64,000 bases of DNA from OCS155 cluster bacterium AG-426-D23 (lineage in GTDB: Bacteria > Actinomycetota > Acidimicrobiia > Actinomarinales > Actinomarinaceae), in assembly GCA_003213165.1 (NCBI GenBank), contig QCNO01000002.1:74868-138867 (forward strand), written 5' to 3'. The translations under genes and the position numbers were made by a program. The notes under the pieces are model-generated. The model was not told the origin of the DNA and did no database searches. It saw only the letters and a list, made by a program, of their open reading frames with translations. This document shows, piece by piece, positions 2,642-42,385 of this stretch. Position 1 is the stretch's first letter. Each line of letters opens with the position of its first letter.

Positions 2642-2678
2642 TGTTCTATTGTATCCACAGTTCTTCTAAGCTATCAAT

Positions 2679-4052: not shown

Positions 4053-4088
4053 TTGTATAAATATACAAATAAATGTATATTTATAAAT
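4053..4088. promoter_or_regulatory. two ARG-box-like palindromes overlapping a possible leaderless argR promoter
   Basis: TTGTATAAATATACAA (4053-4068) and ATGTATATTTATAAAT (4073-4088), 20-bp register; also reads as TTGTAT-17 nt-TATATT-7 nt-ATG(4089). Confidence 0.5.
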
Positions 4089-4550: not shown

Positions 4551-4557
4551 TTACCCT

Positions 4558-5364: not shown

Positions 5365-5410
5365 AATTTATTGGCAAAAATAAGTTTGTTTAGATTAACC
5401 TTAAGTAGAT

Positions 5411-6832: not shown

Positions 6833-6834
6833 TC

Positions 6835-7605: not shown

Positions 7606-7614
7606 AATATTGGT

Positions 7615-8178
7615 ATGAAATCACATACACCTCTAGCGAAATTTATCCACTGGAGTTTTTCAATTCTCTATGCATATGGAATATTTAAACAAGTAGGAGA
7701 TTTGTCAGAGCTTGAAGATCCAGCTTTGTTAAATTTCGAAATCTTATTTGCTGTTGCGTTTTTAGTTATTGTTTTCATCAGATATTTTTATATGAAAGAC
7801 ACTGAAACCTTGCTTGGTGCAAATATCGAAATTCGTAAAGGCCATTTGTTCATCGCAAAATCTGTACATAGGCTTGTATATTTTACTCTTGTAATGCTTC
7901 CACTGACTGGACTTTTGATTGCAGGACTCTTTTCCATAGGCGGTGGTGGGATTGAATTAGCAATAGGTTTACATGAATTTTCAGCCTTTTTAAGTTATGC
8001 GCTAATAGCTGTGCATGTTGGCGCTTCTTTTTACTCAAAGTTAAAAGGGGAAGGGATATGGAATGCTATGACCCCAGTTTGGAAAGAAAAAGAAAAGAAA
8101 GAATCAAAATTAATATCCTATTTAGAAAAAACTGAAGACAAAGTTTACGAAACAATTGAAAAAACTTTAAGGTTATAA
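7615..8178 (+). CDS. cytochrome b561-like four-helix membrane protein
   Basis: Four predicted TM helices carrying conserved-position His (IHWSF, VHRLVYF, LHEF, AVHVG). Confidence 0.5.
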   Translation: MKSHTPLAKFIHWSFSILYAYGIFKQVGDLSELEDPALLNFEILFAVAFLVIVFIRYFYMKDTETLLGANIEIRKGHLFIAKSVHRLVYFTLVMLPLTGLLIAGLFSIGGGGIELAIGLHEFSAFLSYALIAVHVGASFYSKLKGEGIWNAMTPVWKEKEKKESKLISYLEKTEDKVYETIEKTLRL

Positions 8179-8201
8179 AACACTTAGTCTAAAATCGATA
8201 C

Positions 8202-9464
8202 ATGCAAGATTTTCTAAATTCTACAAATTTTACCCAGATTTTTATTGCTCTTATTTTGATTAAGTTTTTACTAGAAACTTATTTAAAAATAAGAAACCTC
8301 AAATCTATTGACAACAACAAAGCCTCTGTACCGCCTAGATTTAAGGATGTTGTAACGGATGAGGAGTACAAAAAATCAATTCTTTACAATACAGATCGAA
8401 TCAAATTCCAGATATTTACTGCTTTATTTGGTTCAGTTGTTCTCGTCATTTTTACAATAGGGGGTTTGCTTAATTATTTAACAGAAGTTGTTATGGATAT
8501 AACTTCATCAAATGTCTTGGGAGCGGTACTTCTTGGATTACTTTTAATAATCGTTGAAGAAATAATTTCAATTCCGATATCAATATATTCAACTTTTGTG
8601 ATTGAAGAAAGACATGGTTTCAACAAAACAACAAAGAAAACATTTGTAACAGATATATTTAAAAGCCTTTTTATTTCTGGAGCAATATCTTCCATTCTTT
8701 ATGCAACTGTAATTTTTATTATTATTAGCGCAGGCGACCTGTGGTGGATTTATGCATTTGCGGCAGTCTTTACTTTACAAGCTATAATTTTCTTCTTATA
8801 TCCTGTATTAATAATGCCTTTGTTTAACAAATTTGAACCACTAGATGATGAACAGTTTAAAAAACCGATTGAAAAACTGTTAGAAAAAGTTGATTTTAAA
8901 TCAAAAGGTTTATTTGTGATGAATGCAAGCTTACGCAGCACACATGGCAATGCTTTTTTTACAGGATTTGGAAAAAATAAGAGAATTGTATTTTTTGATA
9001 CACTTTTGAAAACAATTAACCCTGATGAAATGGAAGCAATACTTGGTCACGAACTTGGTCACTATAAATTAGGACATATTCGCAAAACATTAATCAGCTC
9101 TCTAGTTTTTGGGTTTTTAGGATTTTATATTTTAAATGAAATATTTAAGAGCGATAATTTTTTCATAGCTCATGGATTGGAAAATTTAACAGTATATTCA
9201 AAGTTTTTAATGTTCTATTTAGTTATTGGTTCCTATACATTCTTCACTAAACCTATAACATCGGCTTTATCTAGGAAGAGGGAGTTTGAAGCAGATGACT
9301 TTTCTTTCCAATTTACAGATGGAGAACACATGATTTCTGGTTTGTTAAAACTTACTAAAGACAACGCTTCTAATTTAACCCCGGACCCACTTTACAGTTC
9401 GTATTATTACTCACACCCTCCAATAGCTGAAAGGGTCGCAAGTATAGAAAATAAGTTACAATAG
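8202..9464 (+). CDS. M48 (Ste24/HtpX-like) zinc metalloprotease
   Basis: Multi-TM N-terminus, HELGHYKLGH (HEXXH), downstream EFEADDFS glutamate. Confidence 0.85.
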   Translation: MQDFLNSTNFTQIFIALILIKFLLETYLKIRNLKSIDNNKASVPPRFKDVVTDEEYKKSILYNTDRIKFQIFTALFGSVVLVIFTIGGLLNYLTEVVMDITSSNVLGAVLLGLLLIIVEEIISIPISIYSTFVIEERHGFNKTTKKTFVTDIFKSLFISGAISSILYATVIFIIISAGDLWWIYAFAAVFTLQAIIFFLYPVLIMPLFNKFEPLDDEQFKKPIEKLLEKVDFKSKGLFVMNASLRSTHGNAFFTGFGKNKRIVFFDTLLKTINPDEMEAILGHELGHYKLGHIRKTLISSLVFGFLGFYILNEIFKSDNFFIAHGLENLTVYSKFLMFYLVIGSYTFFTKPITSALSRKREFEADDFSFQFTDGEHMISGLLKLTKDNASNLTPDPLYSSYYYSHPPIAERVASIENKLQ

Positions 9465-9473
9465 TACTAGACA

Positions 9474-9797
9474 ATGAGCACTGCAGATGAAATTAAAAAG
9501 CTAAATGAACTTCTTAGAGAAAGGGTTATATCTCAAGAAGAGTTTGACGCAGAAAAAGATAAACTTCTTAAAAAAAGTAGCCCATCAGAAAGTGACTCCC
9601 AATGGGTTGTAACTTTGCTTTTAGCATTTCTACTGGGAGTTATAGGAGCACACAGATTCTATGTCGGGAAAACAGGTACAGGAATATTAATGCTTCTAAC
9701 CTTTGGAGGCTTAGGAATATGGCTGTTAATAGATTTAATTCTTATTATTACAGGACAATTTACTAACAAAGCCGGAGAAAAAATAGCTAGAATTTAG
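9474..9797 (+). CDS. TM2-domain protein with SHOCT-like N-terminus
   Basis: EIKKLNELLRERVISQEEFDAEKDKLL then TM2 core LGVIGAHRFYVGKTGTGILMLLTFGGLGIWLLIDL. Confidence 0.75.
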   Translation: MSTADEIKKLNELLRERVISQEEFDAEKDKLLKKSSPSESDSQWVVTLLLAFLLGVIGAHRFYVGKTGTGILMLLTFGGLGIWLLIDLILIITGQFTNKAGEKIARI

Positions 9798-12199
9798 TCA
9801 TCTAGGCTAATCCAGTAAACACCACCAGCTCTTGTGCCAGCGTACAAAATTCTTGTTTCAGGGTTCAACTCTAAAGAGAATACTCCGGGATGCTGTAATC
9901 CTTTATTGAAATCTTCCCATGTTGTTCCACCATCAGTGCTTTTATAGATTCCAAAATCTCCCAATGCACCCCTGTCTCCTGCAAGCCTAAAGTAATCGAC
10001 AGTTGCTAAATAAAGCATGTTGCTATTTTTTGGATCGACTGCAATATCACCCACACCAAACGGTTCAGATATTTGTGGTACATTAAGCTGTATCCAGTTT
10101 GCTCCTCCGTTAGTGCTTTTATAAAGCCCGTCATCGTCAGTACCTAGGTAAAGAGTATTTGAATCATTTGGATCAACAACTAAAACATTTGTTTCTAAAG
10201 TGTCTAAACCATTATTTATCTGTTCCCAGCTTGAACCTCTGTCTACACTTTTGAAAACACCTGCACCATCACCTATTTTATCCGTGTAGTCTGTTTGACC
10301 TTGAGTAGTAGCATAGAACACATCACTATTGTTTGGATCTATAACTAATTTGCTTACGTGAACATCTCGAGTAAAACCATCATCTGAGTTTCTCCAAGAT
10401 TCACCCAAATTTTCAGAACCTGTGATACCCACTCCTCTTTTAGCTGATTGATCACCTCCACTACCTACTAATACTTTGTAAGGGCTTTCTGTCTCAACTA
10501 TTATCCCGTGGTAATGACAGTTTCCACCCCCTGGTTCTGGATCGTCACAGAGATCTTCACCACCAATTATTTCCCAGGAACCCCCAGCATTTTCAGATTT
10601 GTAGACACCACCACCAAATGTCGCAAATAAAATATCTGGGTCAATGGGGTGAGGAGCTAGTTGCATTCCGTACCAATTTTTGATTCCAAAAGAGGCAAAA
10701 CTCCAATTTTTGCCATTATCAATGCTTTTAAATATTCCAATATTGTACGTTGTTGCATACATTGTTCCATCAGTAGCAGTTGCTATATCAACAACCTCGG
10801 AACCAACAAATCCAGTATTTGTCTCAATCCAACTACTTCCTTCGTCGTATGTTCTGTACACTCCTTGAAGTCCGGCCATGATTACTTCTGTACTATTTTC
10901 ACCTGTCATTATTATTTCAACACCTACATCAGGAATTATTGGGTGTTCGCTAGTGCTCAGAAATTCTTCAGAAGAATTACCCCCATCTTTACTAATAAAC
11001 GTAACTCTTGAAAACACAGAATAAACAACGTTTTCTTTGAAATCATCTACATAAACACCCCCCTCAGAAGGGTCTCCACTTACTCCATCTAGTAAAACCC
11101 AACTATTTCCTCCATCAACACTTCTGTAAATTCCGGCACAATACCTAGCAACATCCTCTTCATAATCTAGGTCATCATCTTCTAAATTAAAACAGTCGGC
11201 AAAAGTATATTTTCCAACTCTTACATAAACTACATCTGAGTTCTCTGGATGAATAGCAATACCATTGACATCGGACCTATGAAAAGATTCACTTACTATT
11301 TTCCACGTTTCTCCCGAGTCCTCAGTTTTTGCTACTAGGTTGTCAGTTCCAACAAAAATAATACTTGGATTTTGTGGATCGACATATAAAGTTTCAATTC
11401 TATCAATTTCTTCTTCATCAAGCTCTTGTCCTTCTTCTAGCTCAATTTCTTCAAACACCCCTTTTGGTACGGGATTAGTTCTTGTCCACTGATCTCCCCA
11501 ATCAGGAGAAATATAAACAGCTGAGTTTTCTATCGGTGAACAATCTCCATTCTCATCATCTTCGCAGTCTTCTCCAAATGGTAAATATCTACCTGCTACA
11601 TATAGAAAATCCATAGTTTTGTCTATAGCAATTCCTGTGTATTCAACCACACCAGACTCAAAATCTCCTACGGGATTTGTTTCTGTCCATGTGAGGCCTT
11701 TGTCGAGTGATATAAATAATTTTGAGTCTGATGTGTTTGATGCTTCTGTAATGAAAGCAACTCCATCTGGATTATGTTTACCAACAACAACTCCAGCCAT
11801 ATTTCCGCCTATAGTTTTTTTCAATTCCCAAGTAAAAGTTTCTTTGTTAATAAAATATAAGTTACTATCGGCAAACCCAGAGTTATCTGTTGTAGTTGCC
11901 CAGTATCCATCTACAGTTTTAAATAAGCTTGTTACAGTTCCGCCAAATGGTCCATTTACTTGATTCCATTTAGAAGAACTTAGTGCTGGATCTGGTAAAT
12001 CTGGTAATTCAGGAGGTATAAATTCTGTAACTTCATTATCATTTTCTTCTTCATTATCATTTTCTTCTTCAAATTCTTCACTTTCGTCATCGGAAGATAT
12101 CTCAACCAGTGTAGGACCAGAGGAATCACTACTTGAACAGGCAGAAACAACTAAAAAAAACAAGAATAAGACGATTAATTTATTACTTATTTTTAACAT
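9794..12199 (-). CDS. BNR/Asp-box repeat lipoprotein (beta-propeller, GH74/sortilin-like)
   Basis: Signal peptide + lipobox (VVSAC); about 12 S-x-D-x-G-x-(T/S)-W boxes (SLDKGLTWT, SVDGGNSWV, STDGGTTWE and others); acidic linker. Confidence 0.85.
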   Translation of the reverse strand: MLKISNKLIVLFLFFLVVSACSSSDSSGPTLVEISSDDESEEFEEENDNEEENDNEVTEFIPPELPDLPDPALSSSKWNQVNGPFGGTVTSLFKTVDGYWATTTDNSGFADSNLYFINKETFTWELKKTIGGNMAGVVVGKHNPDGVAFITEASNTSDSKLFISLDKGLTWTETNPVGDFESGVVEYTGIAIDKTMDFLYVAGRYLPFGEDCEDDENGDCSPIENSAVYISPDWGDQWTRTNPVPKGVFEEIELEEGQELDEEEIDRIETLYVDPQNPSIIFVGTDNLVAKTEDSGETWKIVSESFHRSDVNGIAIHPENSDVVYVRVGKYTFADCFNLEDDDLDYEEDVARYCAGIYRSVDGGNSWVLLDGVSGDPSEGGVYVDDFKENVVYSVFSRVTFISKDGGNSSEEFLSTSEHPIIPDVGVEIIMTGENSTEVIMAGLQGVYRTYDEGSSWIETNTGFVGSEVVDIATATDGTMYATTYNIGIFKSIDNGKNWSFASFGIKNWYGMQLAPHPIDPDILFATFGGGVYKSENAGGSWEIIGGEDLCDDPEPGGGNCHYHGIIVETESPYKVLVGSGGDQSAKRGVGITGSENLGESWRNSDDGFTRDVHVSKLVIDPNNSDVFYATTQGQTDYTDKIGDGAGVFKSVDRGSSWEQINNGLDTLETNVLVVDPNDSNTLYLGTDDDGLYKSTNGGANWIQLNVPQISEPFGVGDIAVDPKNSNMLYLATVDYFRLAGDRGALGDFGIYKSTDGGTTWEDFNKGLQHPGVFSLELNPETRILYAGTRAGGVYWISLDD
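12032..12067. repeat. 18-nt perfect tandem duplication inside the lipoprotein linker
   Basis: ttcattatcattttcttc x2, encoding EEENDN x2 on the minus strand. Confidence 0.9.
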
Positions 12200-12243
12200 T
12201 TACCGAAATATTAGTATTAAAACCTATACCTCGCTTGAATATT

Positions 12244-13479
12244 TTATGGAACACTCAGTACAAATAAAGCTTGCAATGTTAATGCCACTGTTATAAATAA
12301 GAAAATATATTGTGTTTTATCGCTTTTTTGATGTCCAAATATTTTAACCGATAAATCATGAGCTAAAACCACACTAAGCATATGTCCTGCAAGCGTAACG
12401 ATGACCATAACTGTCCATAAAACAATTGGCTCCAAAAAATAATCAACAGTAGTTTCTTGTGCGTTAAATAGGTTCCACCCAAAACCTAGAGGATCGTTAA
12501 GTCTGTATAACAACGTTTGAGACTCAAACAAGAGTAGCCCTAGGTAATGAGTTACATGATATGCAAAAGCAATTGGCAGCATAGTGTGGCCAAATTTAAG
12601 CGAGATTTCATTAAGATCATAATTTTCTCCGCTAACGCGTATCGCAAAATAACAAGCAAACCTATAAAAAATTATGACAATTAAATTCATTGAGAGAAAA
12701 GCCATTGTTGAAAAAGATGTTTCATAGCTTCTGGTTCCAAATAAGTTGAACCAAAATGTTGTTTCCCGCAGTCCGTCGTAAGTAACCGTTCCAATCATTA
12801 GAAGAATAAAGTATTCCATTCCTTTTAGCTGAGCAAGGTTGGAAAGGTTGTTTAAAAGACTTTTGAAAACAGGAGCTTTATGAGTAACTCTCATCTTGCT
12901 ATAAAGATGATGTAGAACAAGCAAAGGATCAACTTCGATAATAGTTTTTTTATAAAACTTTTGTACAAGCGACACAACAACAATCAACAGTAAAAACACT
13001 ATACCGATATGTCTTGGATTGCCGGGTTTAGTCCAAACTAGTTCAAACCAAGTTAAACAAATAAACAGGAACGATGCAACATATACATTTTTAGAATCTC
13101 CTTTTTGATTCACAATTATTGACAAAGGATTGAACTTTGCATATAAATCACCAAAAAGAAGTCCAAGAACTGGAACTCCAATCCATAAGAAAACCCACAA
13201 AATTAAGGGAGTTACTGAAACCTTAGCTGCTTCATTATTTACTAAACCAGGAACAGTTAATAAAACTAGTACCAAGAGACCTAGAAGCTTCCCACTTGGG
13301 GTTTGTTTTGTTGAAAAAAGCCTCTCTTCAGAAGTTAAGATTGACTCCTTCCAAGAAACCTTCAAAAATACAAAAGTAACAACTACAGTCAAAACAGCAG
13401 CATTTAATACCATATTAAAAGGAATGGGCAAGTCACCTACATTTATAATTCCGTGACTTAAGTCTTGTTCTATTGACAT
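12244..13479 (-). CDS. polytopic membrane protein, unknown function
   Basis: 411-aa ORF, about 10 hydrophobic helices; no motif recognised. Confidence 0.65.
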   Translation of the reverse strand: MSIEQDLSHGIINVGDLPIPFNMVLNAAVLTVVVTFVFLKVSWKESILTSEERLFSTKQTPSGKLLGLLVLVLLTVPGLVNNEAAKVSVTPLILWVFLWIGVPVLGLLFGDLYAKFNPLSIIVNQKGDSKNVYVASFLFICLTWFELVWTKPGNPRHIGIVFLLLIVVVSLVQKFYKKTIIEVDPLLVLHHLYSKMRVTHKAPVFKSLLNNLSNLAQLKGMEYFILLMIGTVTYDGLRETTFWFNLFGTRSYETSFSTMAFLSMNLIVIIFYRFACYFAIRVSGENYDLNEISLKFGHTMLPIAFAYHVTHYLGLLLFESQTLLYRLNDPLGFGWNLFNAQETTVDYFLEPIVLWTVMVIVTLAGHMLSVVLAHDLSVKIFGHQKSDKTQYIFLFITVALTLQALFVLSVP

Positions 13480-13553
13480 AGGATAACCCCATTATATGTT
13501 TTCCAATTACAAAATCTCCACTAGAATTAAAATGATTAAACAGGGAAATCATT

Positions 13554-13733
13554 ATGTGTATAGTTTGTAACATTACTCAAAACGAATTTATTGAAACAGC
13601 ATTAGCCGTAGAGAATGTTTTTGATGGTGAATACATGACAATACCGTTAAGAGCGACACCTGAGCAAGTTCATTCATTTGAAGTTATTCAATCTATGTTG
13701 TTGAACGCAAATTTGATAGCTTTAATCTTTTAA
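13554..13733 (+). CDS. small protein (59 aa), unknown; below the ORF-track cutoff
   Basis: ATG at 13554 preceded by AGGGAAA 6 nt upstream; MCIVCNITQNEFIETALAVENVFDGEYMTIPLRATPEQVHSFEVIQSMLLNANLIALIF*; convergent with zur. Confidence 0.45.
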   Translation: MCIVCNITQNEFIETALAVENVFDGEYMTIPLRATPEQVHSFEVIQSMLLNANLIALIF

Positions 13734-13735
13734 AC

Positions 13736-14173
13736 TTATTTGCAATTAGAACACTGATCGGTACACGTACCAAACATTTCGACTCTGTGGTCATTTATAT
13801 GGAAATTAAACTTTCTTTCAATTTTTTTTATTTCTTCCGATAAAAGCTTTTCAAACTCATCGCTTAAACCAACATCAATAATCTCACCACAGTCACCACA
13901 AAATAAGTGATGATGATGTTCGGCATCATGCAGTAGTAGCTCAACAACTGTTGTGTTGTCTGGAGAGGTAAATTCGTGTAAAACATTTATTTTTTTAAGA
14001 TCTCCTAGGACTCGATACAGCGTAGACTTTGCTACTTTATTTTGTAACTTTTTTTGCAGGTCATCTATTGTTTGCGGATTCTGACTCTCCATGAGCGCTT
14101 CAAGAACAAGAATTCTTGGATTTGTGATTGAAACATTATGATCTGATAAAATTTTTCTTGAGCTCTCTGACAT
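13736..14173 (-). CDS. zur: Fur-family metalloregulator, probably Zur
   Basis: Winged helix (STLYRVLGDL), HHHHLFCGDCGEI and C-terminal CTDQCSNC metal sites; divergent from znuACB. Start moved to the ATG at 14173, since the upstream 16 codons cover the operator. Confidence 0.85.
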   Translation of the reverse strand: MSESSRKILSDHNVSITNPRILVLEALMESQNPQTIDDLQKKLQNKVAKSTLYRVLGDLKKINVLHEFTSPDNTTVVELLLHDAEHHHHLFCGDCGEIIDVGLSDEFEKLLSEEIKKIERKFNFHINDHRVEMFGTCTDQCSNCK

Positions 14174-14202
14174 ATTTTTATTATAGAATGCTGTATCAAA
14201 AA

Positions 14203-14223
14203 AAATGAGATAAATTCTCATTT
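14203..14223. promoter_or_regulatory. Zur/Fur-box-like 8-5-8 palindrome (box 1, zur side)
   Basis: AAATGAGA-TAAAT-TCTCATTT, perfect arms. Confidence 0.6.
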
Positions 14224-14227
14224 ATAC

Positions 14228-14256
14228 TTGACAATAAAATAAATGGGACTTATTCT
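14228..14256 (+). promoter_or_regulatory. znuA promoter candidate
   Basis: TTGACA (14228-14233) -17 nt- TATTCT (14251-14256); the -10 lies inside box 2. Confidence 0.55.
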
Positions 14257-14261
14257 CATTT
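14241..14261. promoter_or_regulatory. Zur/Fur-box-like palindrome (box 2, znuA side)
   Basis: AAATGGGA-CTTAT-TCTCATTT, one arm mismatch. Confidence 0.6.
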
Positions 14262-14288
14262 ATTGTTATAAATTAGAAGGAGAAACTT

Positions 14289-15314
14289 TTGAAAAATAAA
14301 TATAGTTTCAAATTTGGTGTGATCGCACTTTCTTTAGTATTGATAGCGTGTTCAGGCGGAAGTGCTGATGCAGGCTGTCCTGAAATAGATGGAAGAGAGA
14401 TTAATGTTGTAGCGACAACACCGATGATTGGAGAATTTGTTAGTAATGTAGGCGGAGATAATATAAACCTTACAGTTTTAATGCCGCCTGAAGCAGATCC
14501 CCATACGTACGAACCAGCTCCTCAGGATGCTGGAACAATTGCTGATGCAGATTTAGTTTTTTATACAGGGTTAATGTATGAACCAGCCCCGCTTGTAGAG
14601 TTACTTGAAAACTCAGTCTGCGGTTCTGAAGCTTTGGCTGAGGTTGGCGAAAGTGTTTTTCCCATAGAGTTTAAAGAAGGTGGTCATGATGACCATGACG
14701 ACCATGGAGAAAAAGGACATGATGACCATGACGAAGAAGGACATGATGACCATGACGAAGAAGGACATGAAGGCCACGGCCATGGTGCTTATGATCCTCA
14801 CTTTTGGTTTGATCCGAATAGAGTTGTCTATGCATCGGAATTTATAGAATCAAAATTAATTGAGCTTGACCCAAGTAATGCAGCTAGTTATCAAGCAGCT
14901 GGAGATGCTTATGCAACAGAGTTAAGCAGTTTAACAGGACAAGTTTCACAATTAATTGGGTCAATACCTTCTCAAAATAGAAAACTAATAACTACACACG
15001 AGTCGTTAGGTTACTTAGAGGCAAAATTTGGACTTGAAGTGCTTTCAACAATAATTCCTGATTTAGACTCTTCAAATGAAATAACACCAGCTCAGCTTGT
15101 TGATGTAATTGATGTAATTGAAGATAATAATGTAAAAGTAATCTTTATTGAGGCTGAAGCACCATCTGTTTACGCAGAAACAATTGTTGCGGAGACAGGA
15201 ATAAAAGCAGTTGAGGGCTTATGGGTAGAAACTTTGAAACTGGGTCAAACCTATCCAGAGTTTTTAATTGAAGCCGTTGAATTAATTGTGGAGAATCTTT
15301 CAAAAAGTGATTAA
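14289..15314 (+). CDS. znuA: zinc ABC transporter substrate-binding lipoprotein
   Basis: TTG start after AGGAG; lipobox LIAC; TroA/ZnuA fold motifs (DPHTYEP, DPHFWFDP); long His/Asp/Glu-rich loop typical of ZnuA. Confidence 0.9.
   Translation: MKNKYSFKFGVIALSLVLIACSGGSADAGCPEIDGREINVVATTPMIGEFVSNVGGDNINLTVLMPPEADPHTYEPAPQDAGTIADADLVFYTGLMYEPAPLVELLENSVCGSEALAEVGESVFPIEFKEGGHDDHDDHGEKGHDDHDEEGHDDHDEEGHEGHGHGAYDPHFWFDPNRVVYASEFIESKLIELDPSNAASYQAAGDAYATELSSLTGQVSQLIGSIPSQNRKLITTHESLGYLEAKFGLEVLSTIIPDLDSSNEITPAQLVDVIDVIEDNNVKVIFIEAEAPSVYAETIVAETGIKAVEGLWVETLKLGQTYPEFLIEAVELIVENLSKSD
14713..14770. repeat. 24-nt tandem repeat (2 perfect copies + partial) in the znuA His-rich loop
   Basis: aaggacatgatgaccatgacgaag at 14713-14736 and 14737-14760, then aaggacatga; encodes (E)GHDDHDEE units. 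Confidence 0.9.
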
Positions 15315-15359
15315 GTTGATTGTAGGTAACTTTCGTTAACCTACAAGAAAGATGTCACC

Positions 15360-16151
15360 ATGAAATCAACAGACGACAGAGTATTTGACAACACAGCAAT
15401 CATTGTATCTGATGGTTGCTGTGTTCAGATTGGAAACACCCAAGCACTAGATGATGTGACTTTTTCCATCACTAAAGGGAAAAAAGTTGCAGTGGTTGGA
15501 CCTAATGGCGGTGGCAAGTCTACTTTATTTAATGCCTTAGCTGGCTTAGCTCCGGTGGTTAATGGATCATTAAAAATTAACGGGCTCGACCCACAAGACG
15601 CAAAAGGTACAATTAGTTACGTTCCACAGAAAGATTTAATAAATCGAAACTTCCCTCTTTCTGTAAAACAAGTAGTAGAAATGGGTTTGATAACTCGGAA
15701 CTCTTTAAACCTCTTCGCAAGAAAGCAAATAAATTTAAAAATCGAAGAAGCCCTTGAAAATGTAGGTCTATCCGACAAAATAAACGAAAACATAAATAAT
15801 TTATCTGGTGGCCAGTTCCAAAGAGTCCTGATAGCAAGAGGGCTCGCTCAGGATGCAGATATTATATTATTGGATGAAGCTTTCAGTGCTGTCGATGTAG
15901 GAGCACAAGAAGACATCATGAGTTTGATAAGTGATATTAACTTAGATGGCAAAACGATATTAGTAGCGACTCATGATATAAATAATCTTGAAGAAAAATT
16001 TGATGAGGTTCTTTGTTTGAATAGACACTGTTGTGCCTACGGTGATCCATCAGAAGTTTTAACAGAAGATGTAATTAAAGAAATGTATGGCTCACATTAT
16101 GAGATGTTTAAGAATCATACTTCAGAGAGCCATGAAAAACATAATGATTGA
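15360..16151 (+). CDS. znuC: zinc ABC transporter ATPase
   Basis: Walker A GPNGGGKST, signature LSGGQFQRV, Walker B IILLDEAF. Confidence 0.9.
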   Translation: MKSTDDRVFDNTAIIVSDGCCVQIGNTQALDDVTFSITKGKKVAVVGPNGGGKSTLFNALAGLAPVVNGSLKINGLDPQDAKGTISYVPQKDLINRNFPLSVKQVVEMGLITRNSLNLFARKQINLKIEEALENVGLSDKINENINNLSGGQFQRVLIARGLAQDADIILLDEAFSAVDVGAQEDIMSLISDINLDGKTILVATHDINNLEEKFDEVLCLNRHCCAYGDPSEVLTEDVIKEMYGSHYEMFKNHTSESHEKHND

Positions 16152-16965
16152 GATAATAATTGAGCCTTTTAAATATGAATTTATGATGCGTTCTCTCATT
16201 ACTGCAACTGCATCGGGAATTATGTTGTCAATATTAGGACCCTTTGCAATTAACAGAAATATGGGTTTTATGGCAGACGCAATGGCTCATGCCACACTTC
16301 CAATTATTGCAGTGGGTGTATTTTTAGGTTTTAGTATTTCTGAATTAGGGGTTCCAGCATCTATATTGATTGCATTTTTCCTAGGTTATATAATTAAAAA
16401 TTCAAATGTGGGCGAGGATACTGCAATAGGTATTATTTTCTCATCGTTTTTTGCACTTGGGTTTATTCTGATTTCAATACTAAATGTAACAATTAACTTA
16501 GAGGATTTATTATTTGGGCAAATATTGGCAGTCAGCAGGTTCGATGTATTTATAGTTACAGCGATGTGTATTACAGTAGTAAGTCTTATAATAATTTTTT
16601 TCAAACAATTACTGTTTTATTCTTTTGATCCGATTGGTGCTGAAGTTAAGGGTCTAAATACCAACTTTCTAAATTATTTATTTCTTGTAATATTGTCGGT
16701 GGCAATTGTAGCCTCTCTTCAAACTGTTGGCATTATTTTAGTTTTAAGCATGCTTCTAATTCCAGCAGCCGCATCGAAGCAGATAACAAATACATTTGTT
16801 TCTTCTATATACGTAAGTATTCTCTTTGGTGTTTTTTCTTCAGTTTCAGGACTTTTTCTTTCTTACTTTTTTAATTTACCCTCAGGACCAACTATGTCTA
16901 TGGTTGCAACTTTCCTTTTTGTAGTCTGCTTTTTTGTAAATCAATTAAAAAAAACAAAAATTTAA
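16144..16965 (+). CDS. znuB: zinc ABC transporter permease
   Basis: ABC-3 type permease, 8-9 TM helices. Start set at the ATG at 16144 (ATGATTGA overlap with the znuC stop) rather than 16087. Confidence 0.88.
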   Translation: MIEIIIEPFKYEFMMRSLITATASGIMLSILGPFAINRNMGFMADAMAHATLPIIAVGVFLGFSISELGVPASILIAFFLGYIIKNSNVGEDTAIGIIFSSFFALGFILISILNVTINLEDLLFGQILAVSRFDVFIVTAMCITVVSLIIIFFKQLLFYSFDPIGAEVKGLNTNFLNYLFLVILSVAIVASLQTVGIILVLSMLLIPAAASKQITNTFVSSIYVSILFGVFSSVSGLFLSYFFNLPSGPTMSMVATFLFVVCFFVNQLKKTKI

Positions 16966-16972
16966 TTAAATA

Positions 16973-17440
16973 ATGTACTCGATTTGGCTTACAAGCTCAC
17001 AACATGACGAAGAAATTTACAGTTTAATTCAAAGATTTGCTGATGAAGAGGGTCAAGATGCTTTTATACCCCATGTAACACTGGTCACACAAATTTCTAC
17101 TAAAGAAAAAGTAGCTAAAATTCTAAATGAACTTTTTAAAAAAAAATGCAGTATTCTCTTTGATAAAATTTCAGTTGGTAATACCTACTTCCAGAAACTT
17201 TTCCTAGAGTCTTCTGATAACTCATATTTTTTTAAATCTATCTCAAATATTCAAGGTTGGCCAAGTCTATGGATACCTCATTTATCGTTGTACTACGGGG
17301 ATGAGCTACCCAAATCTTTTGACCTGGGGGAGCTCAATAAACTCATCCCTGTAGCACTCACTTTTGACACTATTGCTGTTTACAAAACAGGACCTGAAGT
17401 GTCAGAGTGGAAGGAGATAACCACTCTTTATTTGGATTGA
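16973..17440 (+). CDS. 2H phosphoesterase superfamily protein (LigT / cyclic phosphodiesterase-like)
   Basis: Two H-x-(T/S)-x motifs: IPHVTLVT and IPHLSLYY. Confidence 0.7.
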   Translation: MYSIWLTSSQHDEEIYSLIQRFADEEGQDAFIPHVTLVTQISTKEKVAKILNELFKKKCSILFDKISVGNTYFQKLFLESSDNSYFFKSISNIQGWPSLWIPHLSLYYGDELPKSFDLGELNKLIPVALTFDTIAVYKTGPEVSEWKEITTLYLD

Positions 17441-17469
17441 TTCCAAAACAACAAATATTTTTGTGATAC

Positions 17470-19704
17470 CTAAACAATTGCAAAACTTTCATTTGAAAAA
17501 TCTATTGATAAGCTTTGTGATGTAGATATCGTTGAAAAATTACTTTCACCAACACCAAGAATTGCTGGAATATTGTGCTCAGCACACCTTATCGCCATGT
17601 GAGAGTTTGGTCCCCCATACTTTGTAATCAAGGATTTGATTTTGTAATTAAAAATCCAATCCCATCCGGGGTCTGCTGCTGGAATAACTACAATTTTATT
17701 ATCGAGGTCATAAGGCTGATTTGAATAATTATCTAGAAGTAAAACTTTCCCAGAAACTGTTCCTTGTCCAATGTAATTTCCGTCTTTGCTCATTTCCTCA
17801 TATAAATAAAAATCATCGGACGACGAGATTAAGTCAGGCATTAATGTGTTTTTAAGATCTAAATTAATTGTATTTTCTTGGCTAAATTCAATATTTAGTC
17901 GTTGAAAAAGTTCTTCGTCGCTTATATTTTGCTCCTCTATTTCATTTAAAATACCGTCAATTCCTTTTGTGTAGTAAAATTTTGAATTCTCTCTTGTTGC
18001 AATAGCGGTCTGAAACATTTCAACCCAAGCTGATGCCGTGTATGGAATATTGTTTAATTCAAAATATTTATCAATATTTGAAAATATAACTTTTTGCAAT
18101 AAAATATTTTCATCTTGCGGTTCACTATTATGAACCAACAGCTCTGTAAACTCTAAATTATTTTTTAGATTAGATGAAGATAGATTATAGTTACCAGCCC
18201 TTATGTGTCCATAAATGTCTAAAAAGCTACTGAGACTTTTCTGTCCAAGTTTGACCTGATAGGCATCCGACTTCATTTTCGTACTTATTGAATTTACTGA
18301 CAACAGTATTGAGTTCTTTTGTGCTTCGGTAATTACATCTTTTCTCAAAAGATTGTTTAATTGAGCAAAATACACAAATCCCAGCCTTGAATGATGAGTA
18401 AAAGGTAACGCCATATTGTCTCTAATAAATTTTATATTTTCTTTTTTAGAGTATTTAAAATTCCCATCAAGCAAAGAGAATGCCCTTAACATAGTTTCAT
18501 TATTTTTTTCTAGGGTTGATTTGTTTAAGCTATCGATTTTAATTAAATCCTGATGCCATTTCTGAATCTCTTCTGGGCTAATAATGTTTTTATATTCAAT
18601 AGCAAATTCATCTTCAGTATCAAACACATATGATGACCTAGAGATATTAAATTCAATTGAATCATGTAAATGTGGGTTCTCTTTTAATTTTTCTAATTGA
18701 TGCTGTATTATTTTTTCACAGCTATCGGCTTGTAAGCTTCGAGTTAAAAAACTATTTAAACTATGGTTTACATTTATGTAGGCTACATTATTGAAAAGTT
18801 CCATTAATTTAGCTGGTTTATATTTTCTATAACCAAATTCACCACGTTGTATATTCCATGTTGAGTCTGTAAACATAAATTTGTATAAACCAAATGCAAC
18901 ATTGTCGGGTTTTTTTCCAATCATTTCGGCTGGATTCATGTCTGACATATTGCTAAAAAGCTGATTGATACCAAAACGATCGTTTGTAGTTTTTTTTAAA
19001 GAGTCATACTTTTTGACATTCTGCTCAATTATTTTTTTCTCTGTAAATATCAAATTCTTATTAACTTTTTTCTCCATCAGAGGCCGAACTTGTAAAAGCA
19101 GGGGTGAAGAATTATTATCCAGAACCATTTCAATGTCTAAATGCTTGTTACCAAATAAATCTTCTAGTTTTGTTAGAATTTTTAGATATACAGAATATTC
19201 ATTATATTTATTTGGCAACTTGTTTATTGATCTATGAACATAGAAATTTTTAATCTGATTGTACTTTCCAGATGTAACTGCATCAGTTTCTGGCCCATTA
19301 TAAATTGAAAATGAACGATAAAGAGAGTCTGTCCCAACCTTAAAAGATGTAAGCACAGATACGCTCTTTGCGTTTTTTACATAATCTTGCAAAATTACGG
19401 TTTGATTGGCATCTTTTTCATAGCTATTCAAGACCTGATTCCATGATTTTTTTATATCTTCTATTCTTTCCTTGCTAATTGGTCCGATGGAAAGATATTT
19501 ACCTGCATTAGAGGAGCTCTCCAAGTCTTCATTAGAACTATTGCTTCTTATCATTATTTCTTCTGAAAAATCATTAAGAATCTCGTTAATATTTCCTAAA
19601 TCTTTCAAAGAAAGCTCTCTAAAGTATGGAATTTTTATATCCGTATGGTTTGCTACGAACTCTAGGTTTTTAGCTTTGTTACCATAATTTATTCGATCAT
19701 CCAT
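17470..19704 (-). CDS. PEP-utilising-enzyme family phosphotransferase (ATP-grasp N-domain + unknown central domain + C-terminal swivel His domain)
   Basis: PPDK_N-like YGNKAKNLEFV, IMIRSNSSNEDLESSSNAGKY, VILQDYV; C-terminal mobile domain ITKYGGPNSHMAIRCAEHNIPAILGV; 7-nt gap after trpB2. Confidence 0.85.
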   Translation of the reverse strand: MDDRINYGNKAKNLEFVANHTDIKIPYFRELSLKDLGNINEILNDFSEEIMIRSNSSNEDLESSSNAGKYLSIGPISKERIEDIKKSWNQVLNSYEKDANQTVILQDYVKNAKSVSVLTSFKVGTDSLYRSFSIYNGPETDAVTSGKYNQIKNFYVHRSINKLPNKYNEYSVYLKILTKLEDLFGNKHLDIEMVLDNNSSPLLLQVRPLMEKKVNKNLIFTEKKIIEQNVKKYDSLKKTTNDRFGINQLFSNMSDMNPAEMIGKKPDNVAFGLYKFMFTDSTWNIQRGEFGYRKYKPAKLMELFNNVAYINVNHSLNSFLTRSLQADSCEKIIQHQLEKLKENPHLHDSIEFNISRSSYVFDTEDEFAIEYKNIISPEEIQKWHQDLIKIDSLNKSTLEKNNETMLRAFSLLDGNFKYSKKENIKFIRDNMALPFTHHSRLGFVYFAQLNNLLRKDVITEAQKNSILLSVNSISTKMKSDAYQVKLGQKSLSSFLDIYGHIRAGNYNLSSSNLKNNLEFTELLVHNSEPQDENILLQKVIFSNIDKYFELNNIPYTASAWVEMFQTAIATRENSKFYYTKGIDGILNEIEEQNISDEELFQRLNIEFSQENTINLDLKNTLMPDLISSSDDFYLYEEMSKDGNYIGQGTVSGKVLLLDNYSNQPYDLDNKIVVIPAADPGWDWIFNYKIKSLITKYGGPNSHMAIRCAEHNIPAILGVGESNFSTISTSQSLSIDFSNESFAIV

Positions 19705-37194: not shown

Positions 37195-37725
37195 ATGTTT
37201 GATTTAAGAGAAGGAGATTTAAAAGTAGCAAAAATTTTATGGAATATAGCAATTCCTCTTTTTCTTGCTGCACCTGTTGCCTATTTTGCAGGGATCGAGT
37301 TTCCATTCGGGTTTTTTAATTTGTTCATGGCTATTGCCGTTTACTATGCTTTGAAAATTTGTACAGATGCAGAGAAGTCTTTAATGACTCCATTCTTTTT
37401 GTTATTTTTAGCTGGTGGAGTAATGGACGCATATGCACAGGGAAATACTATTGCTTATGGCACTGAGTTTGATATTTACTCACCAGGATCCCATATTTTG
37501 TTTATGCTCTTTCTACTTTCCTCATATTGGGGGTTTAAGTCTATAATTCCCAACTGGGCAAGAATTGCTGTTTTGATTGCCGGTATAAGTCAGGTTGTAG
37601 CTTCCTATGCTTCTCTTATCGCAGACAATGCTTTACATGACATTGCAGACACAGGTGCATTTTTAATGTTATTTTTCTTGTTTGCAGTCAGAAATGCAGT
37701 AGTAGATGCTGCAAAAAGTGGATAA
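37195..37725 (+). CDS. polytopic membrane protein, unknown
   Basis: 176 aa, 5 TM helices; RBS AAGGAG. Confidence 0.6.
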   Translation: MFDLREGDLKVAKILWNIAIPLFLAAPVAYFAGIEFPFGFFNLFMAIAVYYALKICTDAEKSLMTPFFLLFLAGGVMDAYAQGNTIAYGTEFDIYSPGSHILFMLFLLSSYWGFKSIIPNWARIAVLIAGISQVVASYASLIADNALHDIADTGAFLMLFFLFAVRNAVVDAAKSG

Positions 37726-37754
37726 AGTTCGCGAAAAAAGGATTAGTAAATATC

Positions 37755-37783
37755 TTGCATAAGATCAAAAGCTAATTTATATT
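37755..37783 (+). promoter_or_regulatory. promoter of sRNA copy 1
   Basis: TTGCAT (37755-37760) -17 nt- TATATT (37778-37783); TTCGCGAA palindrome at 37728-37735. Confidence 0.55.
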
Positions 37784-37789
37784 TATAAC

Positions 37790-37875
37790 ACTATCAGAAA
37801 AGAAATCGAAAGATGGAAAAGAAGATAGAATAGAAAATCCCGAAGGGCCGAGAGGTCAATCGGGATTTTTGCTTT
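37790..37875 (+). ncRNA. candidate small RNA, tandem copy 1 (ends approximate)
   Basis: Purine-rich 5' part, AUC-GAAA-GAU mini-hairpin (37805-37814), then 10-bp stem AAAATCCCGA/TCGGGATTTT (37834-37869) enclosing GGCC-GAGA-GGUC, then UUUUUGCUUU. Confidence 0.55.
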
Positions 37876-37938
37876 ACAGATGATGGTTTTTATAAAATTT
37901 ATGTATAAAAGTTCGCGAAAAAAACAGACGAAAATTTC

Positions 37939-37967
37939 TTGCCAAAATAGCAAATCCACACTATTTT
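37939..37967 (+). promoter_or_regulatory. promoter of sRNA copy 2
   Basis: TTGCCA (37939-37944) -17 nt- TATTTT (37962-37967); TTCGCGAA at 37912-37919; exactly 184 nt from copy 1. Confidence 0.5.
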
Positions 37968-37973
37968 TATATA

Positions 37974-38058
37974 ACTATCAGAAATGAAGTCGCAAGACCT
38001 AATAGAAGATAGTAAGAAAATCCCGGAGGGTCGCAAGATCAATCGGGATTTTCACTTT
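37974..38058 (+). ncRNA. candidate small RNA, tandem copy 2 (ends approximate)
   Basis: GUC-GCAA-GAC (37989-37998); outer stem 38017-38052 enclosing GGUC-GCAA-GAUC; UUUUCACUUU tail. Confidence 0.55.
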
Positions 38059-38229
38059 ATAAGGCCTTTTTAGAAAAAAATGCAATAAGACTCCCTGTGG
38101 CTGTAATTTTTTGTTTTATCGCCTTTTGAAGTGGCTCAAAGCACGAAAGGAAGTCTTACTATTATTTTACTCTTTTTAGGTTTATTAATACTATTTGGGC
38201 AAAAATAAAGATGATTTATACTTAAATTC

Positions 38230-38997
38230 ATGAATATTGGTGCGCATATACCCTCAAAAAACGCAATTGAAGAGATAAAACTGCGAAAAGGCGATACTTT
38301 CCAGATATTTGTATCGAGTCCTCAAATGTGGAAAAGTCCAAAACCTCGAGAAGATGTCGATATTTTACAAGATTATGATGGACCAATATATGTTCATGCC
38401 CCATATTTAATAAATGTTGCTACTCCGAACAACAAAGTACGTCATCCAAGCAGAAAACTTTTAAAGGACACATGTAAAGTCGCGGCAAGTTTTGGAGCCA
38501 AAGGAGTTATTGTTCATGGGGGATCTGTTGGAGAAGGTGGAGACATCGGTGTTGGCTATGATAACTGGAGAAAAGCTATAGAGCATGTGGAAGATACTGG
38601 AATGAGAGTTCTAGTAGAGAATACAGCTGGTGGAAAAAACTCAGTTGCCAGATACATGGACTCTATTGAAAGACTCTGGGAAGTAATTGGCCATTTAAAT
38701 GTTGGGCTTTGTTTAGATACATGTCATACATGGGCAGGAGGAATTCCTACAGAAAAAGCAGTAAAGGGATTTAAAAAACTTGTTAAGAAGATAGACCTTG
38801 TTCATTTCAATGACTCAAAAGATGGCTTTGAAAGCTCGAGAGATCGTCATGAGAACTTGGGTAAAGGACAGATTCCAAAAGCTGAACTCGAATATGTCAT
38901 TAAAAACTGTAAAACAGATATTGTTGTAGAAACTCCTGGAGGACTAGAAGCGCAAAAGAAAGACATTGCGTGGATTAAGCGTCGCTTAAAGAAATGA
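38230..38997 (+). CDS. nfo: deoxyribonuclease IV (endonuclease IV)
   Basis: HAPYLINVA, VHGGS, LVENTAGG, CLDTCH, HFNDSK metal-binding motifs. Confidence 0.93.
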   Translation: MNIGAHIPSKNAIEEIKLRKGDTFQIFVSSPQMWKSPKPREDVDILQDYDGPIYVHAPYLINVATPNNKVRHPSRKLLKDTCKVAASFGAKGVIVHGGSVGEGGDIGVGYDNWRKAIEHVEDTGMRVLVENTAGGKNSVARYMDSIERLWEVIGHLNVGLCLDTCHTWAGGIPTEKAVKGFKKLVKKIDLVHFNDSKDGFESSRDRHENLGKGQIPKAELEYVIKNCKTDIVVETPGGLEAQKKDIAWIKRRLKK

Positions 38998-40302: not shown

Positions 40303-40857
40303 ATGTCATCTTCCAGTCATTTAGATAATGGGTTTTGGTGCACTTTGCCAAATAAAAAAGTAAACCCAGCCGACAAGAGTGAAGTAAGTGAGTTTAAAAA
40401 GAGGTATGGATTTGTAGAACCGTATCTTTCTATGGGATCTATCCCACCTCCAATAGATGAATTACCAAAAATTTTTATAAGATGGGGGCAAGAACCAGCT
40501 AAAGGCACTGAGTGGAAAAGCATTCAAAACGACCCACACCCACACAGACATGATATTAATTTTCCTATTACTGATTATGTTGAAAAGTTTCCTTTTGTAA
40601 ATCCTAAAACGAATGAATTTGAAGATAGAAATAGATGTCAAAAATGTCACAATGCACACAATAATAATGGTGAAGATTGCTGTGGAATGGGAGAAGAAGG
40701 GTGGGTATGTATAAATCCAACCAACATTTTTACATGGGATGAGTTATTAAAAGAATATGCAAGCTGCTATTTAAAAGTAGAAGAGAATTTATTTCCTGCT
40801 TTGGTAAGCAAAAAGAACAATCAAAAGAGAAATCGAAAAAATGGTAGAAGAAGATAA
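40303..40857 (+). CDS. hypothetical Cys/His-rich protein with basic tail (island operon gene 1)
   Basis: 184 aa; CQKCHNAH...DCCG...C cluster; C-terminal KKNNQKRNRKNGRRR; 17-nt overlap with the next gene. Confidence 0.6.
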   Translation: MSSSSHLDNGFWCTLPNKKVNPADKSEVSEFKKRYGFVEPYLSMGSIPPPIDELPKIFIRWGQEPAKGTEWKSIQNDPHPHRHDINFPITDYVEKFPFVNPKTNEFEDRNRCQKCHNAHNNNGEDCCGMGEEGWVCINPTNIFTWDELLKEYASCYLKVEENLFPALVSKKNNQKRNRKNGRRR

Positions 40858-42385
40858 GAACCTAGTTAATCTCGAAAAAAGATTTCTTGGAAATGTAAAT
40901 TTCTATTTCAATTTAGATAATTACTCAATTCAAAATTTTCATCAAGATTATAAAGAGTGGAAAAATGTTATGTTAGGAAGGCAATTCGAGTCACAAGGGT
41001 TTCAAAATTTTGAAGCTCTATTTTTAATCGCTTCTCATAACTACCTTAAAAAGAATCAACACTTTAAAGATAAGTCATACTATCTGAGGTATTTCGAGGA
41101 AAACATAATAACTGATGAGGCAGAAAAGAGCTTTGAAGAACTGGATTTTAATTATTATTTTATAAACAAACAAAATAAAATCGAAAAGCTAATTAGTGGC
41201 GCTGTTGAGTTGAGTAACGATTTAAAAATATGGTTATTATTCAACTTACGTCCCGACTCTACTGATAATAAAAATCAACTATCACCGACAAGTTTTTTTA
41301 GACTAAATCAAAAAGTAAATTATGTAGAAGAGGTTTATTTATTCCCATATATGATTTTGAAGACAGATATAAAAGATTTATTTTTTCAGATATATAAAAG
41401 CAATTGGTCATATGCTCAAACCCTGGTTGAAAGGTCAAAAATTATTGTCGACCCGGAACTTACTAAACAAACACATATTCAGAACGCATTCAAATCAATA
41501 AAAGAAAGCATGGAATGTTTTAAGGTTAGTTATCTTGAAAAACATGATGAAGAAAATGAATTTATCTATATTTATAAAAATAGTAAATCTGTAAGTAATT
41601 TATCCGGACTTCAAAAAGAAATAATTGGACAAAAGATTCTTTCAAATTATCCAAAAAAAACAATGGTAAAAGTGGGAGACCCAACTTACTGGTCAGTGTA
41701 TTCTGATTTGAATTTATTACAGTTTCTTATCGAATTTTCAAAAAAGATTGGAGAAGTATCTTCAACTACACTAAAAAGTGTCTTTGAAAGGATGGCTCCT
41801 TCATCTGATCAAAAAACCTATTATGCTTCCGATGCTCAAAAAACACAAAATTTTAAAAAGGGATTAGATAAACAAAAAGACGATGTTGGGATAGAAGAGT
41901 TGTCAGAATTTGGTTTATTTAATGAAAGCAATCTAGAGAGTAAATTATTAAAAGATGTTCTAAGTAATGTTGATATTAAAACTCAAGGTATTGATTTTGA
42001 TGATGAAGTTTATGAAAAAACAATGATTTTAGAGTTTTTAAAGGTCAACGCACAAGGTTTAAACGAGTATGAAGTCGAATTTTTAGAGATTTACTATGCA
42101 GAACTATCTGCGGAACAACCTGAGTTATATCTAATAATTTCTGAATATTTGAAAAAAAGAGAAAAACTCTTACATTTAATATATAAAGGGAAGATTATGC
42201 AAGAAAGTATTGAAAATAGAATCTTAGATCAACTGGGTGTTAGAAAAGTTGAAAAAGTAATGACATATTTTGATGCAATGGTTGAAAAAATTAATAAATA
42301 CAAAATTGATATTTTAAAACAAGAGAATACAAAAACAGATAAGTCATTAATAATCAACTATTTTCTATATAGGTTTTTGAAATGA
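40841..42385 (+). CDS. hypothetical protein (island operon gene 2)
   Basis: 514-aa uninterrupted ORF in very A+T-rich DNA; no motif recognised. Confidence 0.75.
   Translation: MVEEDKNLVNLEKRFLGNVNFYFNLDNYSIQNFHQDYKEWKNVMLGRQFESQGFQNFEALFLIASHNYLKKNQHFKDKSYYLRYFEENIITDEAEKSFEELDFNYYFINKQNKIEKLISGAVELSNDLKIWLLFNLRPDSTDNKNQLSPTSFFRLNQKVNYVEEVYLFPYMILKTDIKDLFFQIYKSNWSYAQTLVERSKIIVDPELTKQTHIQNAFKSIKESMECFKVSYLEKHDEENEFIYIYKNSKSVSNLSGLQKEIIGQKILSNYPKKTMVKVGDPTYWSVYSDLNLLQFLIEFSKKIGEVSSTTLKSVFERMAPSSDQKTYYASDAQKTQNFKKGLDKQKDDVGIEELSEFGLFNESNLESKLLKDVLSNVDIKTQGIDFDDEVYEKTMILEFLKVNAQGLNEYEVEFLEIYYAELSAEQPELYLIISEYLKKREKLLHLIYKGKIMQESIENRILDQLGVRKVEKVMTYFDAMVEKINKYKIDILKQENTKTDKSLIINYFLYRFLK

Follow-up and report, generated by a model that had tools for sequence, protein, structure and literature searches.

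A new family of abundant small RNAs encoded by tandem paralogous genes in Candidatus Actinomarina

We analysed a 64,000-nucleotide (nt) stretch of genomic DNA (the window) from the OCS155 cluster bacterium AG-426-D23, a member of the Actinomarinales (assembly GCA_003213165.1 of 0.96 Mb and 33% G+C, labelled G000 in coordinates, with contigs C1, C2 and C3; contig QCNO01000002.1, positions 74,868 to 138,867), and found that two adjacent units within it are independent genes for two old paralogues, types A and B, of one small RNA (sRNA) family. The family is new, specific to this lineage and highly expressed. Unit 1 (37725-37908, plus strand) is a complete type-A gene comprising upstream site, promoter, RNA, terminator and spacer, and unit 2 (37909-38092, plus strand) is a complete type-B gene, as judged from their alignment to each other and from the same architecture being kept in 113 distinct units of relatives. 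The two units share 84% identity in pairwise alignment with a single 1-nt indel, so that they are spaced 184 nt apart when measured at their 5′ ends and 183 nt when measured at their 3′ ends. Each combines its own promoter, an intrinsic terminator, a discrete short transcript and compensatory pairing, and we are nearly certain that these are genuine stand-alone sRNA genes. A first-pass annotation, made from the DNA letters, had proposed that each unit carries a promoter and a terminator of its own and encodes a structured RNA of ~85 nt, and this was borne out by discrete transcripts of 85 nt and 82-83 nt with adapter-defined ends.

Parts of the window were present in 24 public marine RNA runs. 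In three seawater small-RNA ('ncRNA-Seq') libraries, probably from the Kane'ohe Bay diel MSR-seq data set (PMC12678497), contigs covered only 37788-37861/72 and 37974-38055, with no coverage between or beside the two RNA copies in those three libraries, and a control region upstream of rpmH had zero coverage in the same libraries. The type-A sRNA is 85 nt long (37788-37872, plus strand), with a 5′ adapter directly before 37788 and the Illumina adapter directly after 37872. The type-B sRNA is 82-83 nt long (37974-38056, plus strand) and is defined by mismatch-free contigs of that length, including one identical to copy 2 (37974-38055) in two libraries, with the Illumina adapter directly after 38055/38056. 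The same adapter marks the 3′ end of this genome's 5S ribosomal RNA (rRNA), a gene of known strand, in the same libraries, and the sRNAs are therefore transcribed from the plus strand. Summed contig depth, taken as a rough measure of abundance, was 2,100-7,200 for A and 9,400-18,700 for B across two of the libraries (X6 and X7), while the depth for 5S rRNA of the same genome was 3,700-8,800 in X6 and 1,300-1,700 in X7. Contig depths in the small-RNA libraries were 1,000-18,000x overall, at or above the level of 5S rRNA, and the sRNAs are clearly among this organism's most abundant small RNAs in situ.

Folding of the plus strand was far more stable than that of shuffled sequences (z of -6.2 for A and -7.0 for B, with 0 of 200 shuffles as stable), and values for the minus strand were -3.8 and -3.9. 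The minimum free energy (MFE) structure dominates the ensemble (frequency 0.70 and 0.37). In this fold, a 5-bp closing helix (P1) encloses a symmetric 9×9 purine loop and a small GNRA hairpin (P2), and the terminator hairpin lies downstream. In type A, P1 pairs 37791-37795 with 37824-37828 (CUAUC/GAUAG), P2 pairs 37805-37807 with 37812-37814 around a GAAA loop (AUC-GAAA-GAU, 37805-37814), and the terminator hairpin spans 37833-37870, its inner helix pairing 37846-37849 with 37854-37857 around GAGA. In type B, P1 pairs 37975-37979 with 38008-38012 (again CUAUC/GAUAG), P2 pairs 37989-37991 with 37996-37998 around a GCAA loop (GUC-GCAA-GAC, 37989-37998), and the terminator hairpin spans 38016-38053, with its inner helix at 38029-38032 and 38037-38040 around GCAA (all on the plus strand). 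Each terminator hairpin is composed of an 11-bp outer stem (counting the closing G.U or G-C), a 2×2 AG/AA loop, a 4-bp inner helix, a GNRA loop and a U-tract. The GNRA-capped 3-bp helix and the terminator-like hairpin had been read in both copies by the first-pass annotation, as had three differences between A and B that preserve pairing (A-U to G-C in the small helix, C-G to U-A in the inner helix and A-U to G.U in the outer stem), and all are present as described; P1 and a third genomic copy (see below) were absent from that description.

The structure had been deduced from double covariation between the two copies, and covariation across the family agrees with it. Over 83 distinct sequences and 23 proposed pairs, standard pairs occupied 98.9% of cells and changes on both sides occurred at 8 of the 23 pairs. 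None of 500 shuffles reached the observed pairing and covariation values, and sliding the partners by 1-3 columns lowered pairing to 30-52%. RNAalifold alone predicted identical helices, with double changes at 7 pairs. A G65.U74 pair is found in 82 of the 83 sequences and G51.U88 is also conserved; both would be C.A on the other strand, which fixes the plus strand as the one that folds. Loop, internal-loop and stem bases of the terminator hairpin are near-invariant across the family, and the tip in copy 1 (GGCC-GAGA-GGUC) is an outlier, given that 81 of the 83 sequences carry GGUC-GCAA-GAUC. Inspection of the folds revealed no competing pairing for the 5′ strand of the terminator. We rejected a cis-regulatory leader or riboswitch, since the downstream genes vary (one being convergent) and there is no exclusive anti-terminator fold. 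A small protein-coding gene was likewise rejected: substitutions keep pairs rather than codons, and an AUG-initiated frame is restricted to B copies with AAAUGAAG, being missing from B copies with AAAAAGAAG and from most A copies. The earlier statement that no open reading frame (ORF) is conserved therefore stands, with such a frame occurring in some type-B copies only.

The RNA matched no known family, as had been suspected from the sequence. A scan of the whole window against Rfam 15 (4227 models) at gathering thresholds gave no match, and lowering the threshold to E up to 10 over 37600-38300 returned four chance-level hits (11.6-16.4 bits vs thresholds of 47-94). No description of an Actinomarina small RNA was found in the literature searched. 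By BLAST, the unit was detected in 34 of 36 congeneric genomes and in 0 of 24 genomes from other genera of the class. The first-pass annotation had proposed a covariance-model search of related genomes as a check, and this returned family matches across the Actinomarinales: a model built from the three copies of this genome (R1) matched 59 of 65 genomes of the order with 1-7 copies each (12 of 12 among high-quality genomes), including the sole genome of a second, sister genus. A second model (R2), built from 129 hits, matched 0 of 336 other Acidimicrobiia genomes. The RNA family is thus confined to the order Actinomarinales, namely Candidatus Actinomarina and its sister genus. A phage origin was considered and rejected, as the conserved terminator pattern had no exact match in the viral contig collection.

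The A-U vs G-C difference in the small helix marks two paralogue types across the genus (44 sequences with A-U and 38 with G-C). Type A has AUC-GNAA-GAU with loops (G/A)GAAAAGAA, and type B has GUC-GCAA-GAC with loops such as AGAAAUGAA/CUAAUAGAA. Across the genus, A precedes B upstream of an nfo-like gene. The third copy in this genome lies on another contig (G000 C3:122099-122193, minus strand), between a metY-like gene and a 5′-3′ exonuclease gene, and is 91% identical to copy 1. Elsewhere in the window, BLAST weakly matched positions 40817-40876 to the sRNA's purine-rich 5′ half (78% over 55 nt, E 5e-4). These positions span the overlap between the end of a 184-amino-acid (aa) ORF and the start of the next ORF (40841-42385), in A-rich coding sequence. 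Both covariance models missed them, and we rejected them as a further copy, the resemblance being most likely compositional.

The first-pass annotation had regarded the purine-rich 5′ half as a single-stranded, target-binding region, and this one point is not supported: conserved tandem G.A pairs appear to juxtapose the two loop strands, and the sister genus has a Watson-Crick helix at that place. The strands of the 9×9 loop are nearly identical in sequence. Aligned antiparallel, they place G20 opposite A35 in 77 of 83 sequences and the adjacent A21 opposite G34 in 73 of 83, with a second G.A/A.G step at 15-40 and 16-39 that becomes A.G/A-U in one subtype, and in type B the three A.A steps at the centre are replaced by A-U and U-A pairs. 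To judge from these patterns of substitution, the loop strands probably stack as sheared tandem G.A and A.A pairs rather than remaining open and single-stranded. In the sister genus, where a Watson-Crick helix replaces the purine-rich loop strands, one copy forms two near-identical hairpins (11 bp, 2×2 GA/AA loop, 4 bp and GNRA) and the 5′ hairpin of the other copy is broken only by 2×2 loops. On the most likely reading, the RNA comprises a pair of similar, rod-like hairpins, in each of which the outer stem leads through a purine-purine internal loop to a short inner helix capped by a G(C/A)AA tetraloop. We infer that the conserved feature is a rod with a G(C/A)AA cap, present twice per RNA with an identical UC-GCAA-GA tip, rather than an open purine seed. 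Such a twin-hairpin RNA may have arisen by internal duplication.

In both sRNA genes, a conserved upstream site (TCGCGAAAAA) and a promoter of the sigma-70 type precede the RNA, which ends in an intrinsic terminator. The sRNA A promoter (37755-37783, plus strand) reads TTGCAT (37755-37760), a 17-nt spacer and TATATT (37778-37783), with family-conserved boxes and the RNA 5′ end just downstream. That of sRNA B (37939-37967, plus strand) reads TTGCCA (37939-37944), a 17-nt spacer and TATTTT (37962-37967), with 6 nt between the -10 box and the 5′ end at 37974. Both had been located correctly in the first-pass annotation, and the second was also returned by a promoter scan. Among the 113 distinct units, TCGCGAAAAA is conserved at 90% or more, and the -35 TTGC and -10 TAtaTT at 90% or more or at 60-90%, whereas the spacers are variable. 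The sister genus has AAGTTCGCGAAAAATA and CTTGCG in one copy and CTCGCGAAAAC in the other. Within the upstream site, an 8-bp palindrome, TTCGCGAA, occurs in each unit where it had been reported: in unit 1 (37728-37735) it is followed by an A-tract and is a candidate factor-binding site or UP-like element centred ~57 nt upstream of the sRNA A 5′ end, and in unit 2 (37912-37919) its centre is ~58 nt upstream of the sRNA B 5′ end. A centre 57-58 nt upstream of the RNA 5′ end is the usual place for activator sites or UP elements.

Genome-wide, the TTCGCGAA 8-mer showed no enrichment vs its reversed control; a separate count gave 9 occurrences vs 4.1 expected. Approximately half of its occurrences per genome belong either to sRNA promoters or to a conserved double site that precedes rpmH. 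At the latter, two TTTTTCGCGAAC sites exactly 20 bp apart are located ~80 nt upstream of rpmH (G000 C2:69782-69809), preceding rpmH-rnpA-yidC ~5 kb before the window start, and the 20-bp-spaced pair recurs in G009, G034 and G087 (4 of 6 genus genomes searched). The palindrome upstream of rpmH is identical to that of the sRNA genes, and one DNA-binding factor may accordingly serve both. A TTCGCGAA-A7 site was also observed 44 nt upstream of an 86-aa WhiB-like ORF (G000 C2:172085-172396); the single-contig genome G009 shows no such site at the matching distance, and this one may therefore be a chance occurrence.

Unit 2 is followed by the nfo-like gene (endonuclease IV/TIM-barrel; 38230-38997, plus strand) and then lysA, which are separate from the RNA. 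The nfo-like gene is apparently reached by read-through from the sRNA-B promoter, as metatranscriptome (total-RNA) contigs run from ~37970 or 38016 through the terminator into it. Minor transcription passes the terminator into whichever gene follows, and coverage of the terminated RNA exceeds that of this read-through by orders of magnitude. Leaky termination probably contributes to downstream expression. Among relatives, the nfo-like gene lies ~170 nt to over 2 kb from the sRNA, and A and B are 183 bp to ~2 kb apart. Insertions recur in the spacers behind sRNA A and sRNA B, which are hot spots between unchanged flanking genes, and the cargo differs by genome (a cytochrome P450, a GNAT acetyltransferase or a ~410-aa lipoprotein; for example L117:171-2847 and L103:857-2657, which correspond to window positions 37872-38230). 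Downstream genes consequently vary and include nfo-like, P450, lipoprotein and 5′-3′ exonuclease genes, with a convergent next gene in one genome. In some relatives and at the third locus, an ORF starts ~30-45 nt after the terminator. The median intergenic spacer in the order is 2 bp (PMC7771536), and the non-coding sRNA units may be rare places that tolerate insertions.

Taken as a whole, we lean towards an explanation in which lineage-specific genes encode a twin-hairpin rod that acts in trans as a protein ligand. As to its mode, we suggest, more tentatively, an abundant binding partner, decoy or scaffold for a protein. A protein partner, plausibly a dimer, would recognise the two near-invariant hairpin tips, and types A and B would be two variants of one ligand. 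This mode is favoured because loop and internal-loop bases are near-invariant, because abundance is close to that of 5S rRNA and because the sister genus keeps the shape rather than a seed; the two equal tips suggest a dimeric partner. Complementarity of the sRNA to 987 translation-initiation regions was no stronger than that of shuffled sRNAs in a crude scan (duplexfold, with no accessibility term, guessed ORF starts and one genome), which also counts for a protein ligand, and complementarity to the 16S 3′ tail amounted to only 5 nt. Several points nonetheless weigh against this reading. The crudeness of that scan is one. Another is that contig depth sums related strains and all expression data derive from mixed natural populations. 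The alignment behind the pair counts was fitted to the covariance model, and the register of loop pairing is not provable from sequence because one strand is almost all A. Homologues of Hfq and CsrA were not found in this genome by tblastn, so that no known sRNA-binding hub is available, and Ffh, a possible RNA-binding partner, was not found in Actinomarina. Furthermore, multi-copy sibling sRNAs of other bacteria mostly base-pair, and the A/B differences concentrate in the purine loops, as diverging seeds would.

These last points lead to a possible, if doubtful, alternative, that of base-pairing sibling riboregulators whose purine strands (GAAAAGAA, twice) would be open and would pair with pyrimidine-rich mRNA without a chaperone, A and B differing in part of their targets. 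It is typical of antisense regulators (PrrF1/2, OmrA/B, Qrr1-5, Yfr2-5) to be encoded by tandem or multi-copy genes, each having a promoter and terminator of its own. The loops, moreover, are where A and B differ, and they are unpaired in MFE folding. However, start-region complementarity did not exceed that of shuffled sRNAs, the tandem G.A positions are conserved, the sister genus swaps the loops for a Watson-Crick helix yet keeps the hairpin shape, and invariance is highest at the GNRA tips and in the terminator rather than in a seed. An elaboration of the protein-ligand reading that we consider improbable is that the RNA is a decoy titrating a dimeric nucleic-acid-binding protein through its two UC-GCAA-GA tips, as the RNA arm of a compact global circuit. 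The titrated protein may then be the factor binding TTCGCGAA at every copy and at the rpmH site pair, closing an autoregulatory loop, and the two types would set two thresholds in an organism with only two sigma factors.

It is also improbable that the main role lies in cis, with a strong promoter and leaky terminator supplying and throttling transcription of the next gene and the small RNA a terminated by-product. Contigs do cross the terminator into the nfo-like gene, ORFs begin ~30-45 nt past it in relatives and at the third locus, and the genome has almost no intergenic DNA (median spacer 2 bp, PMC7771536). Nevertheless, an effect in cis cannot be the main role because the neighbours are unrelated, one copy faces a convergent gene and the terminated species is far deeper than read-through; an alternative anti-terminator pairing is also absent, and a promoter-terminator cassette would need nothing like the conservation seen in the sequence and structure of the 5′ hairpin. 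That the repeats are DNA-level elements, serving as recombination or cassette-boundary sites for swapping accessory genes, seems barely credible. The cargo between A and B, and between B and nfo, does vary by genome (P450, GNAT acetyltransferase, lipoprotein), but no recombinase is nearby, conservation follows RNA pairing down to strand-specific G.U pairs, and the transcripts are abundant and discrete. Moreover, the copies occupy fixed chromosomal positions, and it is simpler that non-coding DNA tolerates insertions. Even taken jointly, a cis promoter-attenuator cassette and a DNA-level element remain an unlikely account of these genes.

Few free-living bacteria of the surface ocean are smaller or more abundant than Candidatus Actinomarina, which is uncultured and has a genome that is 97% coding with very few protein regulators (PMC7771536). 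Approximately 0.5 kb of the genome is nevertheless devoted to the two copies, with at least one further copy elsewhere, and an abundant RNA maintained at such genomic cost is likely to be central to cell physiology. Since its host and exact transcript ends are established, and since it has a covariance model, a conserved promoter site and two stable types, the family is fit for RNA catalogues and offers a clean example of a twin-hairpin RNA, and its levels could be tracked culture-free in existing diel and depth-resolved metatranscriptomes.

Side observations on the RNA content of this lineage concern the signal recognition particle (SRP). The small SRP RNA (RF00169) was detected in 0 of 7 Actinomarina genomes vs 12 of 14 control genomes (the large SRP RNA, RF01854, and raw reads were not checked). 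The SRP54-type GTPase domain of Ffh and FtsY (PF00448) was absent from all 37 Actinomarina genomes vs present in 24 of 24 other Acidimicrobiia, with two strong matches each, and the Ffh M domain (PF02978) was found in 0 of 28 vs 18 of 18. In this genome, a six-frame motif search and tblastn were both negative for Ffh and FtsY, ffh is missing upstream of rpsP (C1:193099) and ftsY is missing after smc (C1:186005-188299), while secY and yidC are present. On the strength of these sequence searches, Candidatus Actinomarina seems to have no part of the SRP system (Ffh, FtsY or 4.5S RNA), which, if true in closed genomes, would make it an abundant free-living bacterium without a signal recognition particle pathway. 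Separately, the 20 longest ORF-free gaps of this genome contained only rRNA and one tRNA among Rfam families, and ARAGORN called a tRNA-SeC (anticodon TCA; G000 C3:152083-152175) in this ~1-Mb genome.

Among known RNAs, two identities were rejected. 6S RNA is ~180 nt with a central bubble, vs 82-85 nt here, and there was no RF00013 match; RF00013 was found in none of 13 genus genomes, with a control detection of only 5 of 14, such that absence of 6S RNA itself is weakly supported. The SRP (4.5S) RNA resembles the Actinomarina RNA in its helix 8 (domain IV), which has a GNRA hairpin, a 3-4-bp helix and a symmetric purine-rich internal loop, and in being abundant and ~85-110 nt long. However, the Actinomarina RNA lacks the AGG/AGCA loop bases, occurs in 2-7 copies and does not match RF00169, no ffs gene was found upstream of dnaX, and the genus has no Ffh/FtsY GTPase or M domain to bind such an RNA. 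The orphan RNAs IMES-1 to IMES-4 of marine metatranscriptomes are similarly structured, of unknown function and present at very high levels in the ocean, but there is no Rfam match to them, and the Actinomarina RNA has a defined host, gene copies, promoter and transcript ends. Like 6C RNA (RF01066) of Actinobacteria, it is Hfq-independent and has two hairpins sharing one conserved loop motif, although the loops of 6C RNA are C-rich and used for pairing, whereas those here are GNRA tetraloops, found in one order only and without a match to the model.

Gene organization brings the family closest to PrrF1/PrrF2 of Pseudomonas, OmrA/OmrB of Escherichia coli and AbcR1/AbcR2 of Rhizobiales, which are likewise adjacent paralogous genes, each with its own promoter and conserved upstream site, its own intrinsic terminator and some read-through. 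They differ from the Actinomarina RNA in sequence and structure (no Rfam match), its host is without Hfq, and its variable region looks helical rather than like an open seed. Yfr2-Yfr5 (Cyano-1, RF01701) of marine picocyanobacteria belong to a different phylum and their Rfam model gave no match even at E up to 10, the motifs in Actinomarina being twin UC-GCAA-GA tips and purine-purine loops, but they too are abundant, ~90 nt long and present in several copies per genome in a streamlined ocean host with few protein regulators. By analogy, adjacent sibling sRNA genes such as PrrF1/2 and OmrA/B, together with the multi-copy Yfr2 family, would be the closest functional counterparts of the Actinomarina RNAs.

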